DNA of 64,000 bases from Smithella sp. M82 (GCA_001683985.1 MAEO01000181.1:4939-68938), one strand, 5' to 3'; numbered from the stretch's first letter, positions 50,770 to 64,000 are shown. Notes: generated by a model from the sequence alone, not told the origin. Program-made: numbers and translations.

Positions 50770-51186
50770 TCAGGGTAAATCTTTGCCCTTCGTTGCCATC
50801 ATAAATCCCGCATGCTTCACGTTCTTGATGGCCTTCAATTTTTGATAGAGTTCTTCGATCTCTTTTGATCTGCCTTTGGTCACGATGATTTCAAAGCAGT
50901 TGCGGTGATCAAGATGTATGTGCTGGGTGGAAAGAATACAGGTATGATAATCATGCTGGACATCCAGAACTTTGGTTACCAGTTCTCTGGTATGGTGATC
51001 ATAAACCAGAGTTATTGCCCCTGTTACCTCTTTATTTTCCGTCCATTCCTTTTTGACCAGTTCCTCGCGAATCATATCGCGCAACGCTTCCGAGCGGTTG
51101 GTATATTTATTCTTTTTGATATGTTTATCAAATTTAACCAAAAGATCTTCTTCCAGCGATACGCCGAAACGAACCAGTTTGGACAT
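50770..51186 (-). CDS. nikR: Nickel-responsive regulator NikR
   Basis: RFGVSL ribbon-helix-helix, NRSEA.RD.IR, QH, HIHLDHRNC Ni site. Confidence 0.96.
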   Translation of the reverse strand: MSKLVRFGVSLEEDLLVKFDKHIKKNKYTNRSEALRDMIREELVKKEWTENKEVTGAITLVYDHHTRELVTKVLDVQHDYHTCILSTQHIHLDHRNCFEIIVTKGRSKEIEELYQKLKAIKNVKHAGFMMATKGKDLP

Positions 51187-51292
51187 AATATTTTCCCCCA
51201 TTGATGTTTTAGTATAGACATATTAAAGAATTGGGGCAAGAAATATTTGAAGAACGCTATCCCGACCGTTATTAGAACCTGACCGAAATAGT

Positions 51293-61332: not shown

Positions 61333-62383
61333 TTTTCTTTACCCTGTTATAGCCGATGCCGAATACTTTTTTATAAAATTGATCCGCTCTGGCGGAAAAG
61401 TTTATATCGCCGAACCGGGCCGGATATGTTTTTATGGCCATCCAAAGGGTAACCGGTGCCAGCCGTGGGGACCATGTGGACCATTCCGGCGCCTTATAGA
61501 CGCGTCCTTCCCTTACCGCCTTAACGGCTTGCCACTGGGGATTTTTGATAATGTCATTCGAACCGTATGCGGCATTGCCCCAGATAAAGATAACATCGGG
61601 GTTCCATGCAATGATGCGCTCAATAGGCACATCGGCATTGCGCTGCTCAATAACCGATGCCGGATTGATGCCTCCGATCATATTGATAATATCGTTATTG
61701 ACACCGATACGGCACGCAACCGCGTTGGGACGCGAACCGATCCATAACACTTTTTGTTTTTCCCCTGTGGGTATTGATGCGACTCTTTTTTTAATCTCGC
61801 TGAAAACATCTTCCATGAGAGCGATAACGTTGCGCATTTCTTTTTCCTTGCTGAAAATCCTGCCCTGAAAGTTTATGGCTTCATACAACTCGGGAATACT
61901 TTCCGGATAAAGGCTGATGACCCGGATTCCTCTTTCTTCCATAAAACGAACATTGGCCGGATTGACTGTCCAGGTGATCACCAGATCAGGCTGTAACCGC
62001 AGAAGCGTCTCCATGTTGACGTCAATGCCGCTTCCTGCCGACGGTATTTTTTTTCTAATATCGGGCATTGCCGCCTTCATGAGATCATTGTTGTAAGCAT
62101 ATCTGCCAATACCGACAACTCTGTTCCAAATTCCCAAAGCGGGAATCAATTCATAAGTCTGAAAAAAAACTGCTCGCTTGACCGGCAGCGGAATGCTCAC
62201 TGTTCGGTCCAGTTTGTCTTTATAAATCACAGTTTCAGCTTCTGCTTTCTGCAATAAAAGGGGTAAAAACAGGAGTATAACAATTAGTCCGATTATTTTA
62301 AGCCCCTGCAATCCTATGTCAACGCGTTGCAGGGGCTGTTTTTTGATTATTATTCTCTTTGATCTTTTAACTTCTGTTCTCAA
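61322..62383 (-). CDS. Class III periplasmic binding protein (TroA/BtuF-like)
   Basis: DKLDRTV, METLLRLQPDLV, E.IIAWNPDVI, AV..GRVY. Confidence 0.88.
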   Translation of the reverse strand: MRTEVKRSKRIIIKKQPLQRVDIGLQGLKIIGLIVILLFLPLLLQKAEAETVIYKDKLDRTVSIPLPVKRAVFFQTYELIPALGIWNRVVGIGRYAYNNDLMKAAMPDIRKKIPSAGSGIDVNMETLLRLQPDLVITWTVNPANVRFMEERGIRVISLYPESIPELYEAINFQGRIFSKEKEMRNVIALMEDVFSEIKKRVASIPTGEKQKVLWIGSRPNAVACRIGVNNDIINMIGGINPASVIEQRNADVPIERIIAWNPDVIFIWGNAAYGSNDIIKNPQWQAVKAVREGRVYKAPEWSTWSPRLAPVTLWMAIKTYPARFGDINFSARADQFYKKVFGIGYNRVKKIEN

Positions 62384-64000
62384 AATTTAATTTCCAATCC
62401 GCCGAACCACGATCTGCCCGGCGCCAGGTAGGACGAGTAATAAGTTTCATTCGCAATGTTGTCTGCGGAAAAAGAGACCGTGGCAAATTTGGTAATCTTA
62501 TACGAAACCTTCGCGTCCATTGTTAAAAAAGGATCGTACGACAAGAACACATTATTCACCGTATCCGAGTTGTCGTCATTGGAATAACGCTTACTTACGT
62601 ATCTGCCCGTCAAGGAGGCGGAAAACGGTCCGACTTCACCCTCCGCTCCCGCGTTAATCATTGTATCCGGTGTATGGGTCAATCTTTTGTCCACTGTTGA
62701 AGGATTTGCCGCGTTTTCCTTTACCCGGGCGTCCATGTAAGTATAGTTGGCAAAAAGCCTGACATATTTATCGAAACGCTGCTCTATTTCCAGCATCACT
62801 CCTTTGGTTTCGGCTTTACCCACATTCATGTATTTCTTTTCTGTTGAAGATACAGTTGTGGTGTAGACGAGGTCTTTCATGTAGTTTTCAAAATACGCGG
62901 CGCTGATCTTTGCTCCTTTCCAGAGTCCCTGCGTAATCCCTGCATCCCATGACCTCACTGTTTCTGGTTTCAGATCAGGATTTCCACTATATGTAGTAGA
63001 ACCTGAAACATAAGTGCCGAATAATTCATAAACCGAAGGTCCCCGAAATGCCTGCCCGGCGGATGTCTTGAGCGTCGTACTTTCAAAGGGCTTATAGACA
63101 ATGGCCAGCTTCGGACTGAACGCGGAGTCGCTTCTGGAGTCATAAGTCTCGGAAAAAGCGCCTGTTCCGAATTGATTGGCGTATCCGTCTTTTGTTTTCC
63201 ACCAGTCTTCTCTGAAACCGATGTACGCGGTAAGATTATCAAGGATCAATATCTCGTCCTGAACAAAAACCGCGTAGGTTATGCCTTTGCCGCCGTAATT
63301 GTTTGTCATTTCGGTTATGGTAATTTCGTCCTTCCACTCGCTGAGTTTTGATTTTTCGGTATTTGCCGTATCCTGTTTAAACGAACCGCCGAATGTCAGA
63401 ATGTTTCTGCCGAAAAGGGGCAGGGTGAACTGAATATCAGCATTGTAATTCTGGTTGGGTGTGCTGGATACTGTACCGCCGGTGCCTCCTGATATAGAAG
63501 CGCCCGCCTGGGTATACCAGTTTTTTATTTCATCGTTGAGACCGAAAGAAAACTTTGTTTTCATAAATCCGATTTCCGTCTCGAAATTTACATTATATTG
63601 GTTTATATCTTTTGCTCCGGCTCCCGTATAGGCAACGAAAGTCTTTTCACTTACGCCCGTGTATGAGTATACGGGATTTCCGGATGCGTCCCGCAGGTAT
63701 GTATGCGGTTCATCGTAATTATACTTATAGCGGATTCTTGAATAAGATGCGCTTATTTTAGAGGCCTTGGAAAAATCATACTGAGCCTTGATGCCGATAT
63801 TATCATCCCACCAGGTGTTGTCACCCTTATCTCCTATAAGATACCTGGTGTTTCCCTTTGTATCGGTCGTATATGACCAGCCTGTTATGCCGGTTGAAGG
63901 CTGCGTCGGTGCAACATTCATGTATTTAGAAAAGCCGTTTGTCGATTTATAGCCATAGTTGAAAAGAAGATGAAATTTATCGAAAAATTTATCGCCGCAG
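62380..64000 (-). CDS. TonB-dependent outer-membrane receptor (5' part beyond window)
   Basis: Beta-barrel pattern, GNPDLKPET, N.GKAETKG.E, D.KVSY, DNIANE.Y, terminal F; frame stays open to the window edge. Confidence 0.93.
   Translation of the reverse strand, partial: CGDKFFDKFHLLFNYGYKSTNGFSKYMNVAPTQPSTGITGWSYTTDTKGNTRYLIGDKGDNTWWDDNIGIKAQYDFSKASKISASYSRIRYKYNYDEPHTYLRDASGNPVYSYTGVSEKTFVAYTGAGAKDINQYNVNFETEIGFMKTKFSFGLNDEIKNWYTQAGASISGGTGGTVSSTPNQNYNADIQFTLPLFGRNILTFGGSFKQDTANTEKSKLSEWKDEITITEMTNNYGGKGITYAVFVQDEILILDNLTAYIGFREDWWKTKDGYANQFGTGAFSETYDSRSDSAFSPKLAIVYKPFESTTLKTSAGQAFRGPSVYELFGTYVSGSTTYSGNPDLKPETVRSWDAGITQGLWKGAKISAAYFENYMKDLVYTTTVSSTEKKYMNVGKAETKGVMLEIEQRFDKYVRLFANYTYMDARVKENAANPSTVDKRLTHTPDTMINAGAEGEVGPFSASLTGRYVSKRYSNDDNSDTVNNVFLSYDPFLTMDAKVSYKITKFATVSFSADNIANETYYSSYLAPGRSWFGGLEIKF

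Follow-up and report, generated by a model that had tools for sequence, protein, structure and literature searches.

A putative NikR-controlled operon of Smithella sp. M82 combines a probable nickel-chelate importer, an ABC-2 exporter, and a cysteine-rich class I chelatase

We analyzed a 64,000-nt stretch of Smithella sp. M82 DNA (hereafter, the window), together with the rest of the genome and related loci. The window contains an operon of a Smithella-like syntroph in which an outer-membrane receptor, an importer, an exporter, and an unusual chelatase appear to be joined under the nickel sensor NikR. We see about an even chance that this is a nickel-starvation operon, which imports a nickel chelate, processes it with the chelatase, and expels the ligand. 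Such a system would point to an undescribed route for freeing nickel from tightly bound complexes in anaerobic habitats.

The operon comprises nine overlapping or near-abutting genes on the minus strand, which are translationally coupled (Table 1). From the receptor to the ABC-2 permease, the successive overlaps are 4, 11, 4, 4, and 4 nt; a 16-nt gap then precedes the CobN-like gene, which overlaps ChlI by 4 nt (ATGA, provided that ChlI begins at its ATG), and ChlI overlaps ChlD by 4 nt. The gene families, the small overlaps, and the single gap described in the initial annotation were all confirmed. The true first gene is tonB, located beyond the window edge, and the operon is probably co-transcribed from tonB onward. 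It faces nik(MN)QO and the [NiFe]-hydrogenase/hyp cluster, and nikR follows chlD after a 91-nt spacer, convergent with nik(MN)QO, much as the initial annotation had placed it (about 100 nt after the operon and near the hydrogenase). By eye, the spacer includes a promoter-like sequence of nikR's own (TTGCCC-17-TATACT), and the NikR sequence, read directly, contains the nickel-site pattern H-x10-H-x-H-x5-C.

Table 1. Features of the operon and its neighborhood (positions counted from the first nucleotide of the window; those above 64000 are window-equivalent)
Feature	Position	Strand	Supporting evidence
Two NikR-type operators, tonB promoter	65663-65689 and 65702-65728 (outside window)		GTAATAC-N13-GTAACAC and GTACTAC-N13-GTGTTAT
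tonB	64816-65598 (outside window)		
TonB-dependent outer-membrane receptor, 747 aa	62380-64000, cut by window; full gene to 64623	minus	plug and beta-barrel domains
Periplasmic binding protein, NiuB/CeuE-like	61322-62383	minus	Peripla_BP_2
FecCD-family permease (NiuD-like)	60322-61332	minus	PF01032, 311 bits
Importer ATPase (NiuE/FecE-like)	59543-60325	minus	ABC_tran
ABC-2 exporter ATPase (DrrA/NodI-like)	58716-59546	minus	TIGR01188 drrA, 293 bits
ABC-2 exporter permease (DrrB/NodJ-like)	57970-58719	minus	PF01061; NodJ/DrrB models
CobN-like large chelatase subunit, 1265 aa, cysteine-rich, cytoplasmic	54156-57953	minus	PF02514, 1211 bits
ChlI-like AAA+ ATPase subunit	53143-54159	minus	TIGR02030, 428 bits, and TIGR02442, 487 bits (both below cut-off)
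ChlD-like subunit (AAA+ domain, linker, vWA/MIDAS)	51293-53146	minus	AAA_5, AAA_lid_2, VWA_2; TIGR02031, 381 bits
nikR, nickel-responsive repressor	50770-51201	minus	NF003381, 171.6 (cut-off 105); RHH and NikR_C domains
nik(MN)-nikQ-nikO, ECF-type nickel importer	47781-50544	plus	CbiM plus PDGLE, CbiQ, ABC_tran domains
Perfect NikR operator, nik(MN)QO/hydrogenase divergent region	47633-47659		GTGTTAC-N13-GTAACAC
[NiFe] hydrogenase/hyp cluster	37177-47230 (small subunit 46058-47230, large subunit 44376-46052)	minus	small and large subunits, cytochrome b, HycI-type protease, hypA, hypB, hypD, hypF, hypE

The link to nickel homeostasis, which the initial annotation had proposed, is well supported. 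We searched for delta-proteobacterial NikR operators, defined as two 7-bp half-sites located 13–14 bp apart (GTGTTAC-N13/14-GTAACAC) in either orientation (consensus from Rodionov et al. 2004, PMC545781), and found two predicted sites of this type at the tonB promoter, overlapping or following the two best sigma-70-like promoters upstream of tonB. Both diverge from the palindromic consensus: one has two mismatches and the other is a reversed variant. The sole perfect match in the 2.75-Mb genome is that between nik(MN)QO and the hydrogenase. A relaxed pattern matched five times in the genome, three of the matches being this site and the two tonB sites, and seven times in 1.28 Mb of related loci, where five matches lay directly upstream of the first gene of the homologous operon (L004, L007, L017, and L045 twice); both scans were highly selective. 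Other Syntrophales, Syntrophorhabdus, and one Nitrospirota MAG likewise have NikR-type operators ahead of their homologous operons; at the assumed operon starts of many related loci (Geobacter, Syntrophobacter, and Desulfomonile types), no NikR box was recognizable. The association with nikR itself, which the initial annotation had raised, extends beyond the present locus: nikR adjoins the homologous operon in 6 of 73 related loci, and the operon of Syntrophorhabdus aromaticivorans UI begins with it. As for the other signals that the initial annotation had named, no Fur box was found upstream of the operon, and no cobalamin riboswitch was found upstream of it here or in the 12 related loci scanned. 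Three of those 12 (L010, L020, and L022) carry B12 riboswitches a short way downstream, past chlD; a riboswitch in L010 lies ahead of a second NiuB-like gene, which makes it probable that the system also has cobalt versions. The best reading is that the Smithella operon belongs to a putative NikR regulon of the nickel-starvation type.

The initial annotation had viewed the operon as a tetrapyrrole import system tied to nickel; the tie to nickel held, and a tetrapyrrole is only one possible form of the cargo. The binding protein is nearest to NiuB/CeuE. Its best solved relative is Helicobacter pylori CeuE/NiuB (4ino, 4inp, and 4ls3; E = 2.8e-41, 145 bits, full length, with residues 22–303 covered against 4ino/4ls3), compared with 30 bits against BtuF and 31 bits against the heme binder ShuT. 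It has a signal-peptide-like N-terminus and is the only significant NiuB match in the genome. The FecCD permease and ATPase genes adjoin and overlap in series with the binding-protein gene, completing a NiuBDE-type gene set with a class III binding protein. The permease shares 42% identity with a separate BtuC-like permease of the genome, and the heme, corrinoid, and Fe-dicitrate NCBIfam models all scored the ATPase below their cut-offs. For the receptor, no NCBIfam model scored above its cut-off (the top match, the TonB-hemin subfamily, was far below), and the best solved-structure matches, Cir and BtuB, were weak and mostly limited to the plug; CntO, the pseudopaline receptor, was among further weak matches. 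Because the binding protein is closest to NiuB/CeuE, the importer is best called, as judged from homology, a NiuBDE-type nickel-chelate importer, with nickel as the probable cargo. NiuBDE has been shown experimentally to import Ni/Co/Bi, ceuE is under NikR control in H. pylori, and the Helicobacter NiuBDE clade is reportedly nearest to Thermodesulfobacteria and Deltaproteobacteria (PMC5140060).

Translational coupling links the ABC-2 exporter ATPase gene to that of the importer ATPase, and the ABC-2 pair recurs beside the cysteine-rich CobN clade in both bacteria and archaea. This combination of importer and exporter in one operon could also serve a broad-spectrum, non-tetrapyrrole metallophore, of which the apo-form, made elsewhere, would leave via the ABC-2 pump and the loaded form (Ni, Co, perhaps Zn) would be re-imported, with the chelatase-like complex unloading the metal and the ligand being recycled. 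The uptake of Co and Bi by NiuBDE (PMC5140060), the similarity of the receptor to CntO, and the NiuB-like paralogue behind the L010 riboswitch, which suggests metal-specific paralogous systems, are consistent with such a cycle. Nevertheless, we regard it as rather improbable: none of the inspected loci shows genes for making a metallophore within or next to the operon, the known substrates of the CobN fold are all tetrapyrroles, and the cycle overlaps strongly with the nickel-chelate processing proposed above, differing mainly in the ligand source. In the latter, the ABC-2 pump would expel the metal-free ligand.

The gene set of a three-subunit class I (AAA+-driven) chelatase is complete, comprising the large subunit, ChlI with Walker A (GEKGTAKS) and Walker B (YVDE) motifs, and ChlD with a vWA domain and MIDAS motif (DGSGS). 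The CobN-like protein scored above the cut-off of NF004646, a model that owes its name CobN to homology alone (1641 vs 1468), and below those of TIGR02257 (CobN; 760.7 vs 822.05) and TIGR02025 (BchH; 774.9 vs 829). In the CobN/ChlH/HmuS phylogeny that the initial annotation had proposed as a check, it fell outside all bona fide groups: its clade is monophyletic (100/100 support), sister to CobN sensu lato, and separate from the clade with Azospirillum, Ralstonia, and Halorubrum CobN, from the BchH clade of Roseobacter and Hyphococcus, and from a Runella HmuS-like sequence on a distant branch. Identity with the Mg-chelatase subunit ChlH/BchH was rejected on the basis of the TIGR02025 score and the separate BchH clade; neither the operon nor its neighborhood showed any chlorophyll genes. 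The HVGTHG motif emphasized in the initial annotation is present (residues 553–558; solved CobN structures carry GKHG), but it is not diagnostic because some CobN-clade members also carry GTHG. Specific to the clade are cysteines 373, 504, 511, 516, 521, 884, and 1072–1074, and two small insertions accompany the extra invariant cysteines relative to class I large subunits. C1073/C1074 align, via the Runella HmuS-like sequence, to the HmuS site-2 active-site pair D1208/H1209, and the clade-invariant H557/E596 correspond to HmuS H538/E577, H538 being the catalytic His of site 2. The present protein has DEYD...GCCC at the place of EHD...DSDD in CobN of Mtb, Ralstonia, and 9uk9. An AF2 model (pLDDT 84) adopts the CobN/ChlH/HmuS fold (TM 0.79 to HmuS), in which the cysteines may cluster in three dimensions. 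By alignment and tree, the protein represents a distinct cysteine-bearing clade, which is widespread among anaerobic bacteria and archaea.

The initial annotation had noted the lack of corrin synthesis genes in the window, and this was borne out genome-wide: CbiC/CobH, CbiD, CbiK, and CbiX are all absent from the genome, which is estimated to be 100% complete. A separate riboswitch-controlled locus encodes corrinoid salvage (BtuB, BtuF, CobT, CobS, CbiR, and CobU). Ordinary corrinoid synthesis, which the initial annotation had allowed for, is excluded by these two observations, and CobN sensu stricto was rejected given the TIGR02257 score, the position outside the CobN clade, the missing corrin-ring pathway that would make its substrate, hydrogenobyrinic acid a,c-diamide, and the replaced acidic motif. 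A looser form of cobalt handling, in which the imported cargo is a cobalt chelate or a corrinoid that is incomplete or lacks its metal and CobN-ChlID inserts cobalt, would suit the 'CobN' annotation and the SEED-style name 'BtuS', as well as the NF004646 score, the sister relationship to CobN sensu lato, the cobalt transported by NiuBDE, and the riboswitches that three of the 12 related loci carry close to the operon. We consider it very unlikely here, since those riboswitches lie downstream of chlD rather than ahead of the operon, the regulator signal is of the NikR type, the genome has its own salvage locus and no corrin-ring pathway, GCCC replaces the acidic DSDD of CobN, and genomes such as L041 and L067 hold CobN-clade paralogues in addition to the cysteine-rich protein.

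Under the nickel-starvation reading, NikR would leave the two operators on the tonB promoter when nickel is scarce, and a single transcript would encode TonB, the receptor, the NiuBDE-type importer, the ABC-2 exporter, and the three-subunit class I chelatase. The receptor and importer would carry a nickel chelate into the cytoplasm, where the CobN-like subunit, powered by the ChlI/ChlD AAA+ motor, would process it, most likely by pulling Ni(II) from a tight, possibly tetrapyrrole-like ligand onto active-site thiolates. The freed nickel could serve maturation of the hydrogenase, for which the genes lie alongside, and the ABC-2 pump might expel or recycle the metal-free ligand. We favor stripping of nickel over re-metallation; the ligand may be a tetrapyrrole or another compound, F430 being one candidate. 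Precedents for such a system are HmuS, a dechelatase of this fold, 'CobN1' of Methanothermobacter marburgensis, induced by nickel limitation (both described below), and a Runella plasmid on which a TonB receptor and a CobN-like gene of the HmuS type sit within a hyp cluster. H. pylori NiuBDE operates without any chelatase and the ligand of its NiuB/CeuE is Ni(II)-(L-His)2, a small labile complex, so a dechelatase is not obviously needed for uptake of this kind. To our knowledge, the ChlI/ChlD- or CobS/CobT-driven class I chelatases characterized so far all insert metal, and HmuS, so far the one dechelatase known among proteins of this fold, works without ChlI/ChlD.

The same nickel regulon and importer could feed a chelatase running forward, with ATP-driven insertion of Ni(II) into a tetrapyrrole or other acceptor. 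Such a high-affinity nickel chelatase might stand in for CfbA in methanogens, for example, or serve a nickel cofactor in bacteria, and the ABC-2 pump would handle a by-product or the product. The genome encodes HemC and hence makes uroporphyrinogen, and members of the clade are frequent among archaea that make F430 (Methanosarcina, Methanothrix, ANME-1, and Methanomicrobiales); CobN-like chelatases of methanogens have been proposed as nickel chelatases (Kaster et al. 2011, PMC3087415). However, a nickel tetrapyrrole is not known from Syntrophales, Geobacter, or Nitrospirota, the class II chelatase CfbA already accounts for F430 synthesis (PMC8179277), and no tetrapyrrole-modifying genes occur in the operon, whose tight coupling to a TonB receptor, chelate importer, and exporter suits acquisition over biosynthesis. 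Insertion is thus a credible but unlikely alternative to nickel release.

Several known systems resemble parts of this operon, and anaerobes among both bacteria and archaea repeatedly carry the module of importer and chelatase, often joined by an ABC-2 exporter. NiuBDE (CeuE/FecDE) of H. pylori and H. mustelae, which works with NikR-regulated, TonB-dependent FrpB4/NikH uptake, has a full-length NiuB homologue here; in both systems, a FecCD-type permease and an ATPase go together with TonB-dependent uptake across the outer membrane and with control by NikR, which is predicted here. Identity is only about 29–35%, however, and here one operon adds an ABC-2 exporter and a three-subunit class I chelatase that Helicobacter lacks; our literature search found no paper naming NiuBDE together with a chelatase. 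The class I chelatases (CobNST and ChlH/BchH-ChlI-ChlD) have in common with the present proteins the three subunits, the intact ChlI Walker and ChlD vWA/MIDAS motifs, the large-subunit fold, and the conserved H-x-G-x-H-G...E core, whereas the present large subunit lies below the CobN/BchH equivalog cut-offs in a separate clade, bears extra cysteines, and is encoded in a transport operon with NikR-type operators, in a genome lacking both cob and bch pathways.

HmuS/BtuS, the heme dechelatase of Bacteroidota (hmuYRSTUV, 9d26), shows that the CobN/ChlH fold can remove a tetrapyrrole metal (PMC12583661); its family is further marked by the heme ligands Met79 and His254 and by hmuTUV-type partners. 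The six-domain fold of HmuS is predicted for the present protein, the hmuS gene likewise lies beside a TonB-dependent receptor in a metal-harvesting operon, and the His538/Glu577 pair is kept. Together with the TonB-hemin match of the receptor, the shared fold and residue pair would suit heme-iron harvesting as in hmu, in which heme is imported and the CobN-like protein removes its iron. We judge this highly improbable, as sequence similarity to HmuS is weak (355 bits in a search of solved structures), Cys-Cys replaces Asp1208/His1209, and the binding protein scores far lower against ShuT than against NiuB. Moreover, HmuS is membrane-anchored with a Met-rich insertion, has ExbB-like/DUF2149 partners, and is under iron/heme control, whereas the present protein looks soluble and cytoplasmic (N-terminus not hydrophobic; no 40-aa stretch with more than 4 Met), is paired with ChlI/ChlD AAA+ subunits, and is under predicted nickel control with no Fur box found. 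The heme reading, like the corrinoid one, is thereby weakened. In Methanothermobacter marburgensis, 'CobN1' (D9PVN3; Nature 2025, PMC12350162 with supplement) is, like the present protein, an orphan 'CobN' of about 140 kDa from an anaerobe, albeit an archaeal one, and possibly a member of the cysteine-rich clade; CobN1 rises about 300-fold and reaches a high level only when nickel is limiting, along with NikR1 and a transporter.

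The nine same-strand genes described in the initial annotation were all recovered by ORF listing and Pfam/NCBIfam scans, with the families as assigned (Table), and their near-total overlap also held: junctions measured 4–11 nt, with a 16-nt gap before cobN as the sole exception, and the ATG start of chlI overlaps the cobN stop by ATGA. The genome comprises 2.75 Mb in 236 contigs and is estimated to be 100% complete. In the remaining DNA of the contig, the receptor gene extends to a full protein of 747 aa, with tonB directly upstream, and 258 nt of intergenic DNA separate tonB from a divergent PP-loop gene on its 5′ side. 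The nikR gene, placed earlier at about 100 nt after the operon, follows a spacer of 91 nt, is convergent with nik(MN)QO, and is preceded by its own promoter-like element. The neighboring [NiFe] hydrogenase was likewise found; it is of the periplasmic type, lies beside nik(MN)QO, and is accompanied by genes for cytochrome b and a maturation protease as well as by hypA, hypB, hypD, hypE, and hypF. Between nikMN and nikQ, one DNA run gave a short segment with about 70× summed contig depth versus 3–10× in its flanks; one contig links position 48915 back to 48823 and one contig omits one base at 48823, a pattern consistent with a small multi-copy insertion element inside the nik operon. The closest homologs of the CobN-like protein (88% and 83–84% identity) are from Smithella sp. 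MAGs, and metagenomes of oil-production facilities, wastewater, and sludge contain near-identical DNA; the source is therefore a Smithella-like syntroph of methanogenic communities. Three metatranscriptome runs of a study containing the organism's DNA gave no coverage.

Positions of the features discussed (window numbering, or its continuation into flanking contig DNA, unless a contig, locus, or accession is named)
Feature	Position	Strand	Remark
Window	C149:4939-68938		contig MAEO01000181.1
Operon, receptor to chlD	51293-64623	-	nine coupled genes
First genes in order		-	TonB-dependent receptor (cut at window end), Peripla_BP_2, FecCD permease, ATPase
Following genes in order		-	DrrA-like ABC-2 ATPase, ABC-2 permease, 1265-aa CobN-like, ChlI-like, ChlD-like
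CobN-like protein	54156-57953	-	residue numbers in the text refer to it
Extra NikR half-sites	47262-47285; 47535-47555		GTAACAC; TGTAACAT
High-depth segment	48823-48915		between nikMN and nikQ
GC stem in tonB-receptor spacer	64640-64790		L001 3579-3730 (rest of the contig)
Intergenic operator-like match	C227:15352-15378		L078 4353-4379 (same genome)
Cobalamin riboswitch locus	C221:1-10400		L077 (same genome)
Second NiuB-like system	L010:16807-21900		Nitrospirae MAG
Runella slithyformis plasmid pRUNSL01	NC_015693.1:15236-30154		L084, reference record
Ralstonia solanacearum megaplasmid	CP052099.1:730331-750158		L081, reference record

A NikR-type operator, one of the elements that the initial annotation had suggested seeking upstream, was found in duplicate on the tonB promoter, which reads TTGACATAATCGTAATAC-N13-GTAACAC-N12-GTACTAC-N13-GTGTTAT. 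The delta-proteobacterial NikR signal is GTGTTAC-[N13/14]-GTAACAC, and the reversed half-site orientation also occurs (Rodionov et al. 2004, PMC545781). The perfect signal is present as a single copy in the genome, 122 nt 5′ of nik(MN), and a genome-wide scan returned the tonB site GTGTTAC-N13-GTATTAC among seven matches with two mismatches. When the pattern was relaxed to GTAnTAC-N13-GTAACAC or GTGTTAC, with no more than one mismatch and on both strands, the 2.75 Mb yielded five matches, namely nikMN, the two tonB sites, one within coding sequence on contig C142, and one unrelated intergenic site on contig C227; the last two are probably due to chance. The C227 match (ATAATAC-N13-GTGTTAC, with an AT-rich spacer), the sole other intergenic one in the genome, falls where an FtsJ-like methyltransferase/IspH-UbiA operon and an alpha/beta hydrolase gene diverge. 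Both sites at tonB either overlap the two top-scoring sigma-70-like promoters (TTGCCA-17-CATAAT and TTGACA-18-TACATT) or come immediately after them, a predicted geometry that is as expected for a repressor, and the NikR protein itself scored above the curated cut-off and has the nickel-site spacing H-x10-H-x-H-x5-C. From tonB to the receptor, no promoter-like or terminator-like element was found on the coding strand. The 192-nt spacer between these two genes holds a 7-bp GC stem (GGCAGGG...CCCTGCC, 20-nt loop, no T-run) and a 62-aa ORF without a family match; the spacer could tune read-through to the receptor gene. Additional single NikR half-sites are located in the long AT-rich stretch from the hydrogenase small-subunit gene to nikMN, through which NikR might also affect the hydrogenase promoter. 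The initial annotation had tied ordinary corrinoid metabolism to a B12 riboswitch; no Rfam match appeared in the 5.8 kb with the true operon start, even at E ≤ 1, and at the gathering threshold the window contained tRNA only. The best matches to a Fur box had at least five mismatches, all within coding sequence. We regard the operon as a likely member of the nickel regulon.

With the CobN-like protein as query, we scanned a single genome for each GTDB species and mapped the window proteins by tblastn onto the resulting 73 loci. The order receptor, binding protein, FecCD, ATPase, (ABC-2 ATPase, ABC-2 permease), CobN, ChlI, ChlD is kept in about 50 of them, from Syntrophales, Syntrophorhabdales, Syntrophobacterales, Desulfomonilales, Geobacterales, and Nitrospirota, and reduced versions occur in Methanotrichaceae and Desulfosporosinus. 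The operon is adjoined by nikR in six of the 73 loci, and in Syntrophorhabdus aromaticivorans UI nikR is its first gene. Across 1.28 Mb of related loci, the relaxed operator had seven matches, five of which were immediately 5′ of the first operon gene (loci L004, L007, and L017, and twice in L045); locus L012 has a similar but weaker operator-like site. Many loci, chiefly of the Geobacter and Syntrophobacter types, had no recognizable NikR box at the presumed operon start, so NikR control is supported by sequence in several lineages, not in all. A perfect GTGTTAC half-site upstream of tonB in two Nitrospirota loci (L008 and L010) was rejected as an operator, being inside an ExbB-like coding region. 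Among 12 diverse related loci scanned with Rfam, none had a cobalamin riboswitch upstream of the operon, and three (L010, L020, and L022) had one downstream of chlD. In L010, the riboswitch comes right after chlD and is followed by a second NiuB-like binding protein, a large unassigned ORF, and a second tonB; a related arrangement was noted in L008, L044, and L049. This riboswitch-preceded paralog in Nitrospirota may be a cobalt-chelate sister system beside the nickel one.

Corrin synthesis genes, reported as missing from the window, were also missing genome-wide: CbiC/CobH, CbiD, CbiK, and CbiX are absent, and HemC is present. The genome has one CobN-family gene and one cobalamin riboswitch, which stands at the head of a different locus, with genes for a BtuB-like receptor, BtuF, CobT, CobS, the cobamide-remodeling CbiR, and CobU, with BtuCD-like genes just upstream. 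Given this salvage locus and the missing synthesis genes, corrinoids are salvaged via a dedicated riboswitch-controlled system and the substrate of CobN cannot be made, and the host is apparently a corrinoid auxotroph with cobamide remodeling. The rival view that the operon handles cobalt or corrinoids, to which the CobN name of its largest protein would lend itself, is weakened, and we regard it as very unlikely.

Against solved structures, the binding protein matched Helicobacter pylori CeuE/NiuB (4ino, 4inp, and 4ls3) best by a wide margin (E 2.8e-41, 145 bits), over nearly its whole length, versus 30 bits for Escherichia coli BtuF and 31 bits for the heme binder ShuT. When the NiuB segment as printed in that alignment was searched genome-wide, only the operon gene was found (E 3e-40), and the genome's BtuF-like protein gave no match. 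The binding protein shares 22% identity with this BtuF-like protein, and the receptor 25–33% with the BtuB-like receptor over partial stretches. A NiuB-like binding protein is encoded in the operon of all related loci. Uptake of nickel, as well as of cobalt and bismuth, by NiuBDE was demonstrated by Fischer et al. (2016, PMC5140060), who also reported Ni(II)-(L-His)2 as a ligand of NiuB and NikR regulation of ceuE. In the same paper, the nearest relatives of the NiuB/NiuD clade of gastric Helicobacter were reported to be in Thermodesulfobacteria and Deltaproteobacteria, which are the taxa bearing the present operon. Judged by homology, the importer of the operon is of the NiuBDE type for nickel, and the operon probably imports a nickel chelate. 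The nickel-linked reading of import followed by stripping or re-metallation was supported in part: it was strengthened in its nickel link and specified in its importer, and a tetrapyrrole such as F430 stays a candidate cargo.

The score of the CobN-like protein exceeded the cut-off of NF004646, a model named "CobN" by homology, and fell below those of the experimentally anchored models TIGR02257 (CobN) and TIGR02025 (BchH). Its scores against solved structures were 569 bits for Mycobacterium tuberculosis CobN, 491 for another CobN, 480 for ChlH, and 355 for HmuS. In a maximum-likelihood tree with references from annotated records (Azospirillum cobW-cobN-cobG, Ralstonia cob, Halorubrum cob, Roseobacter bch, and the Runella HmuS-type gene), its clade was monophyletic (support 100/100, stem length 1.0), sister to CobN sensu lato (86/75), and apart from BchH and the HmuS-like branch. 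The phylogeny that had been suggested earlier thus places the protein outside bona fide CobN, BchH, and the HmuS-like branch, and two genomes (loci L041 and L067) carry a clade member plus CobN-clade paralogs. The CobN fold can strip iron from heme, as in HmuS (PMC12583661); a heme role for the present operon is weakened, and we consider it extremely improbable. On the HmuS branch, the Runella plasmid carries its CobN-like gene between hypF and hypCDE, along with genes for a TonB-dependent receptor, a "urease accessory protein," an ExbB-like protein, and DUF2149, and so provides the superfamily with another nickel context, independent of the first.

The clade is marked by invariant or near-invariant cysteines missing elsewhere: C373, in a two-residue insertion (NPCAS); C504, C511, C516, and C521, which form C-x6-C-x4-C-x4-C in a five-residue insertion 36 residues before HVGTHG; C884, kept in most members; and C1072–C1074. 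HVGTHG was discarded as a clade marker, as some CobN-clade proteins also have it. Alignment to Bacteroides thetaiotaomicron HmuS, made through the Runella HmuS-like sequence, showed that HmuS His538/Glu577 correspond to conserved H557/E596, whereas Asp1208/His1209 are replaced by C1073/C1074, where CobN has DSDD and BchH has (V/I)DH; in HmuS, the site proposed for dechelation is lined by both pairs (PMC12583661). An AlphaFold2 model of residues 67–1265 (pLDDT 84, pTM 0.86) has the CobN/ChlH/HmuS fold (TM 0.73–0.81), and the cysteine insertion loop is of low model confidence, as would be expected of an unoccupied metal site. A DNA pattern for PKRGCAGxxC(D/N)G matched at least 120 species genomes, and the matches listed include Methanosarcina, Methanothrix, ANME-1, Methanoculleus, Methanoregulaceae, Desulfurococcales, Ca. 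Kuenenia, Clostridia, and Thermodesulfobacteria, again with FecCD/ATPase importers, ABC-2 pairs, and ChlI/ChlD beside the genes listed. In the partner subunits, the Walker A and B motifs of ChlI are intact, and a MIDAS motif is present in ChlD. A His-rich ChlD linker was dismissed as a nickel sink (not conserved; median of two His in homologs), and a 4-Cys ChlI motif as a clade marker, since the enzyme of the Ralstonia cob cluster shares it. That cluster encodes a HoxN-type Ni/Co permease, ferredoxin, CobN, a fused ChlI-ChlD, CbiD, and CbiG; the fused protein, annotated "putative cobaltochelatase," carries the motif, and CobN there has ChlID-type partners within a B12 cluster with anaerobic-type genes.

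For the chelatase, we favor dechelation, with a confidence just short of even, because regulation of the operon resembles that of an uptake system, the enzyme is coupled to an importer and an exporter, thiolates suited to accept Ni(II) replace one active-site acid/base pair, and an energy-driven motor suits the extraction of nickel from a kinetically inert ligand. The opposite direction, in which the chelatase inserts nickel, is a serious rival, as all characterized AAA+-driven members insert metal, and we rate it as unlikely. Methanothermobacter CobN-like chelatases were speculated to insert nickel (Kaster et al. 2011, PMC3087415), and in a proteome study from 2025 M. marburgensis CobN1 (D9PVN3) was up about 300-fold under nickel limitation, with NikR1 and a transporter rising alongside, and was not raised under iron or H2/CO2 limitation (PMC12350162). 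CobN1 could not be placed in the cysteine-rich clade, being absent both among the 120 motif matches listed and from the best 120 homologs of a Methanothrix member. For dechelation, a full scheme can be put forward speculatively: the cysteine-rich CobN clade and ChlI/ChlD would form an ATP-driven nickel dechelatase. Kinetically inert nickel tetrapyrroles (F430, its breakdown products, or Ni-porphyrins) or a tetrapyrrole-like nickelophore would enter by the TonB receptor and the NiuBDE-type transporter, the CobN-like protein with ChlI/ChlD would draw Ni(II) from the chelate at the expense of ATP, and the ABC-2 exporter would pump the empty macrocycle out. The CobN fold tentatively suggests a tetrapyrrole-like macrocycle as the ligand, F430 specifically being a doubtful choice, and the homology to NiuB points to a smaller nickelophore.

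In anoxic, sulfidic habitats, free Ni(II) is scarce and nickel is limiting for hydrogenases, CO dehydrogenase, and methyl-coenzyme M reductase; to our knowledge, the means by which anaerobes obtain it there are largely unknown. The system is of high interest for the nickel economy of anaerobes. In strict anaerobes and methanogens, the "CobN" and ChlI/ChlD genes are an acknowledged puzzle (PMC12583661, PMC9227772, PMC3087415), and the HmuS authors noted that the roles of many CobN-like proteins of archaea and anaerobes are unknown (PMC12583661). The present locus links one large, well-defined clade of such genes to NikR, to a homolog of a nickel importer proven by experiment, and to a thiolate-bearing active site, which converts the puzzle into concrete, testable hypotheses. 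Searches of the literature on CobN with NikR, NiuBDE with a chelatase, and related combinations found no paper describing the operon; relative to this searchable literature, the joining of Niu-type nickel uptake to a class I (de)chelatase of a distinct, cysteine-rich clade is a new variation on known systems. As syntrophs, sulfate and metal reducers, methanogens, and ANME widely carry the module, it would, if the proposal is true, be a major nickel-recycling route in sulfidic, methanogenic habitats, with relevance for syntrophy and methane cycling. A dechelatase of this kind would be the first AAA+-powered class I chelatase working in reverse, and would extend the principle of HmuS from iron to nickel while adding an energy-driven step to metal acquisition.
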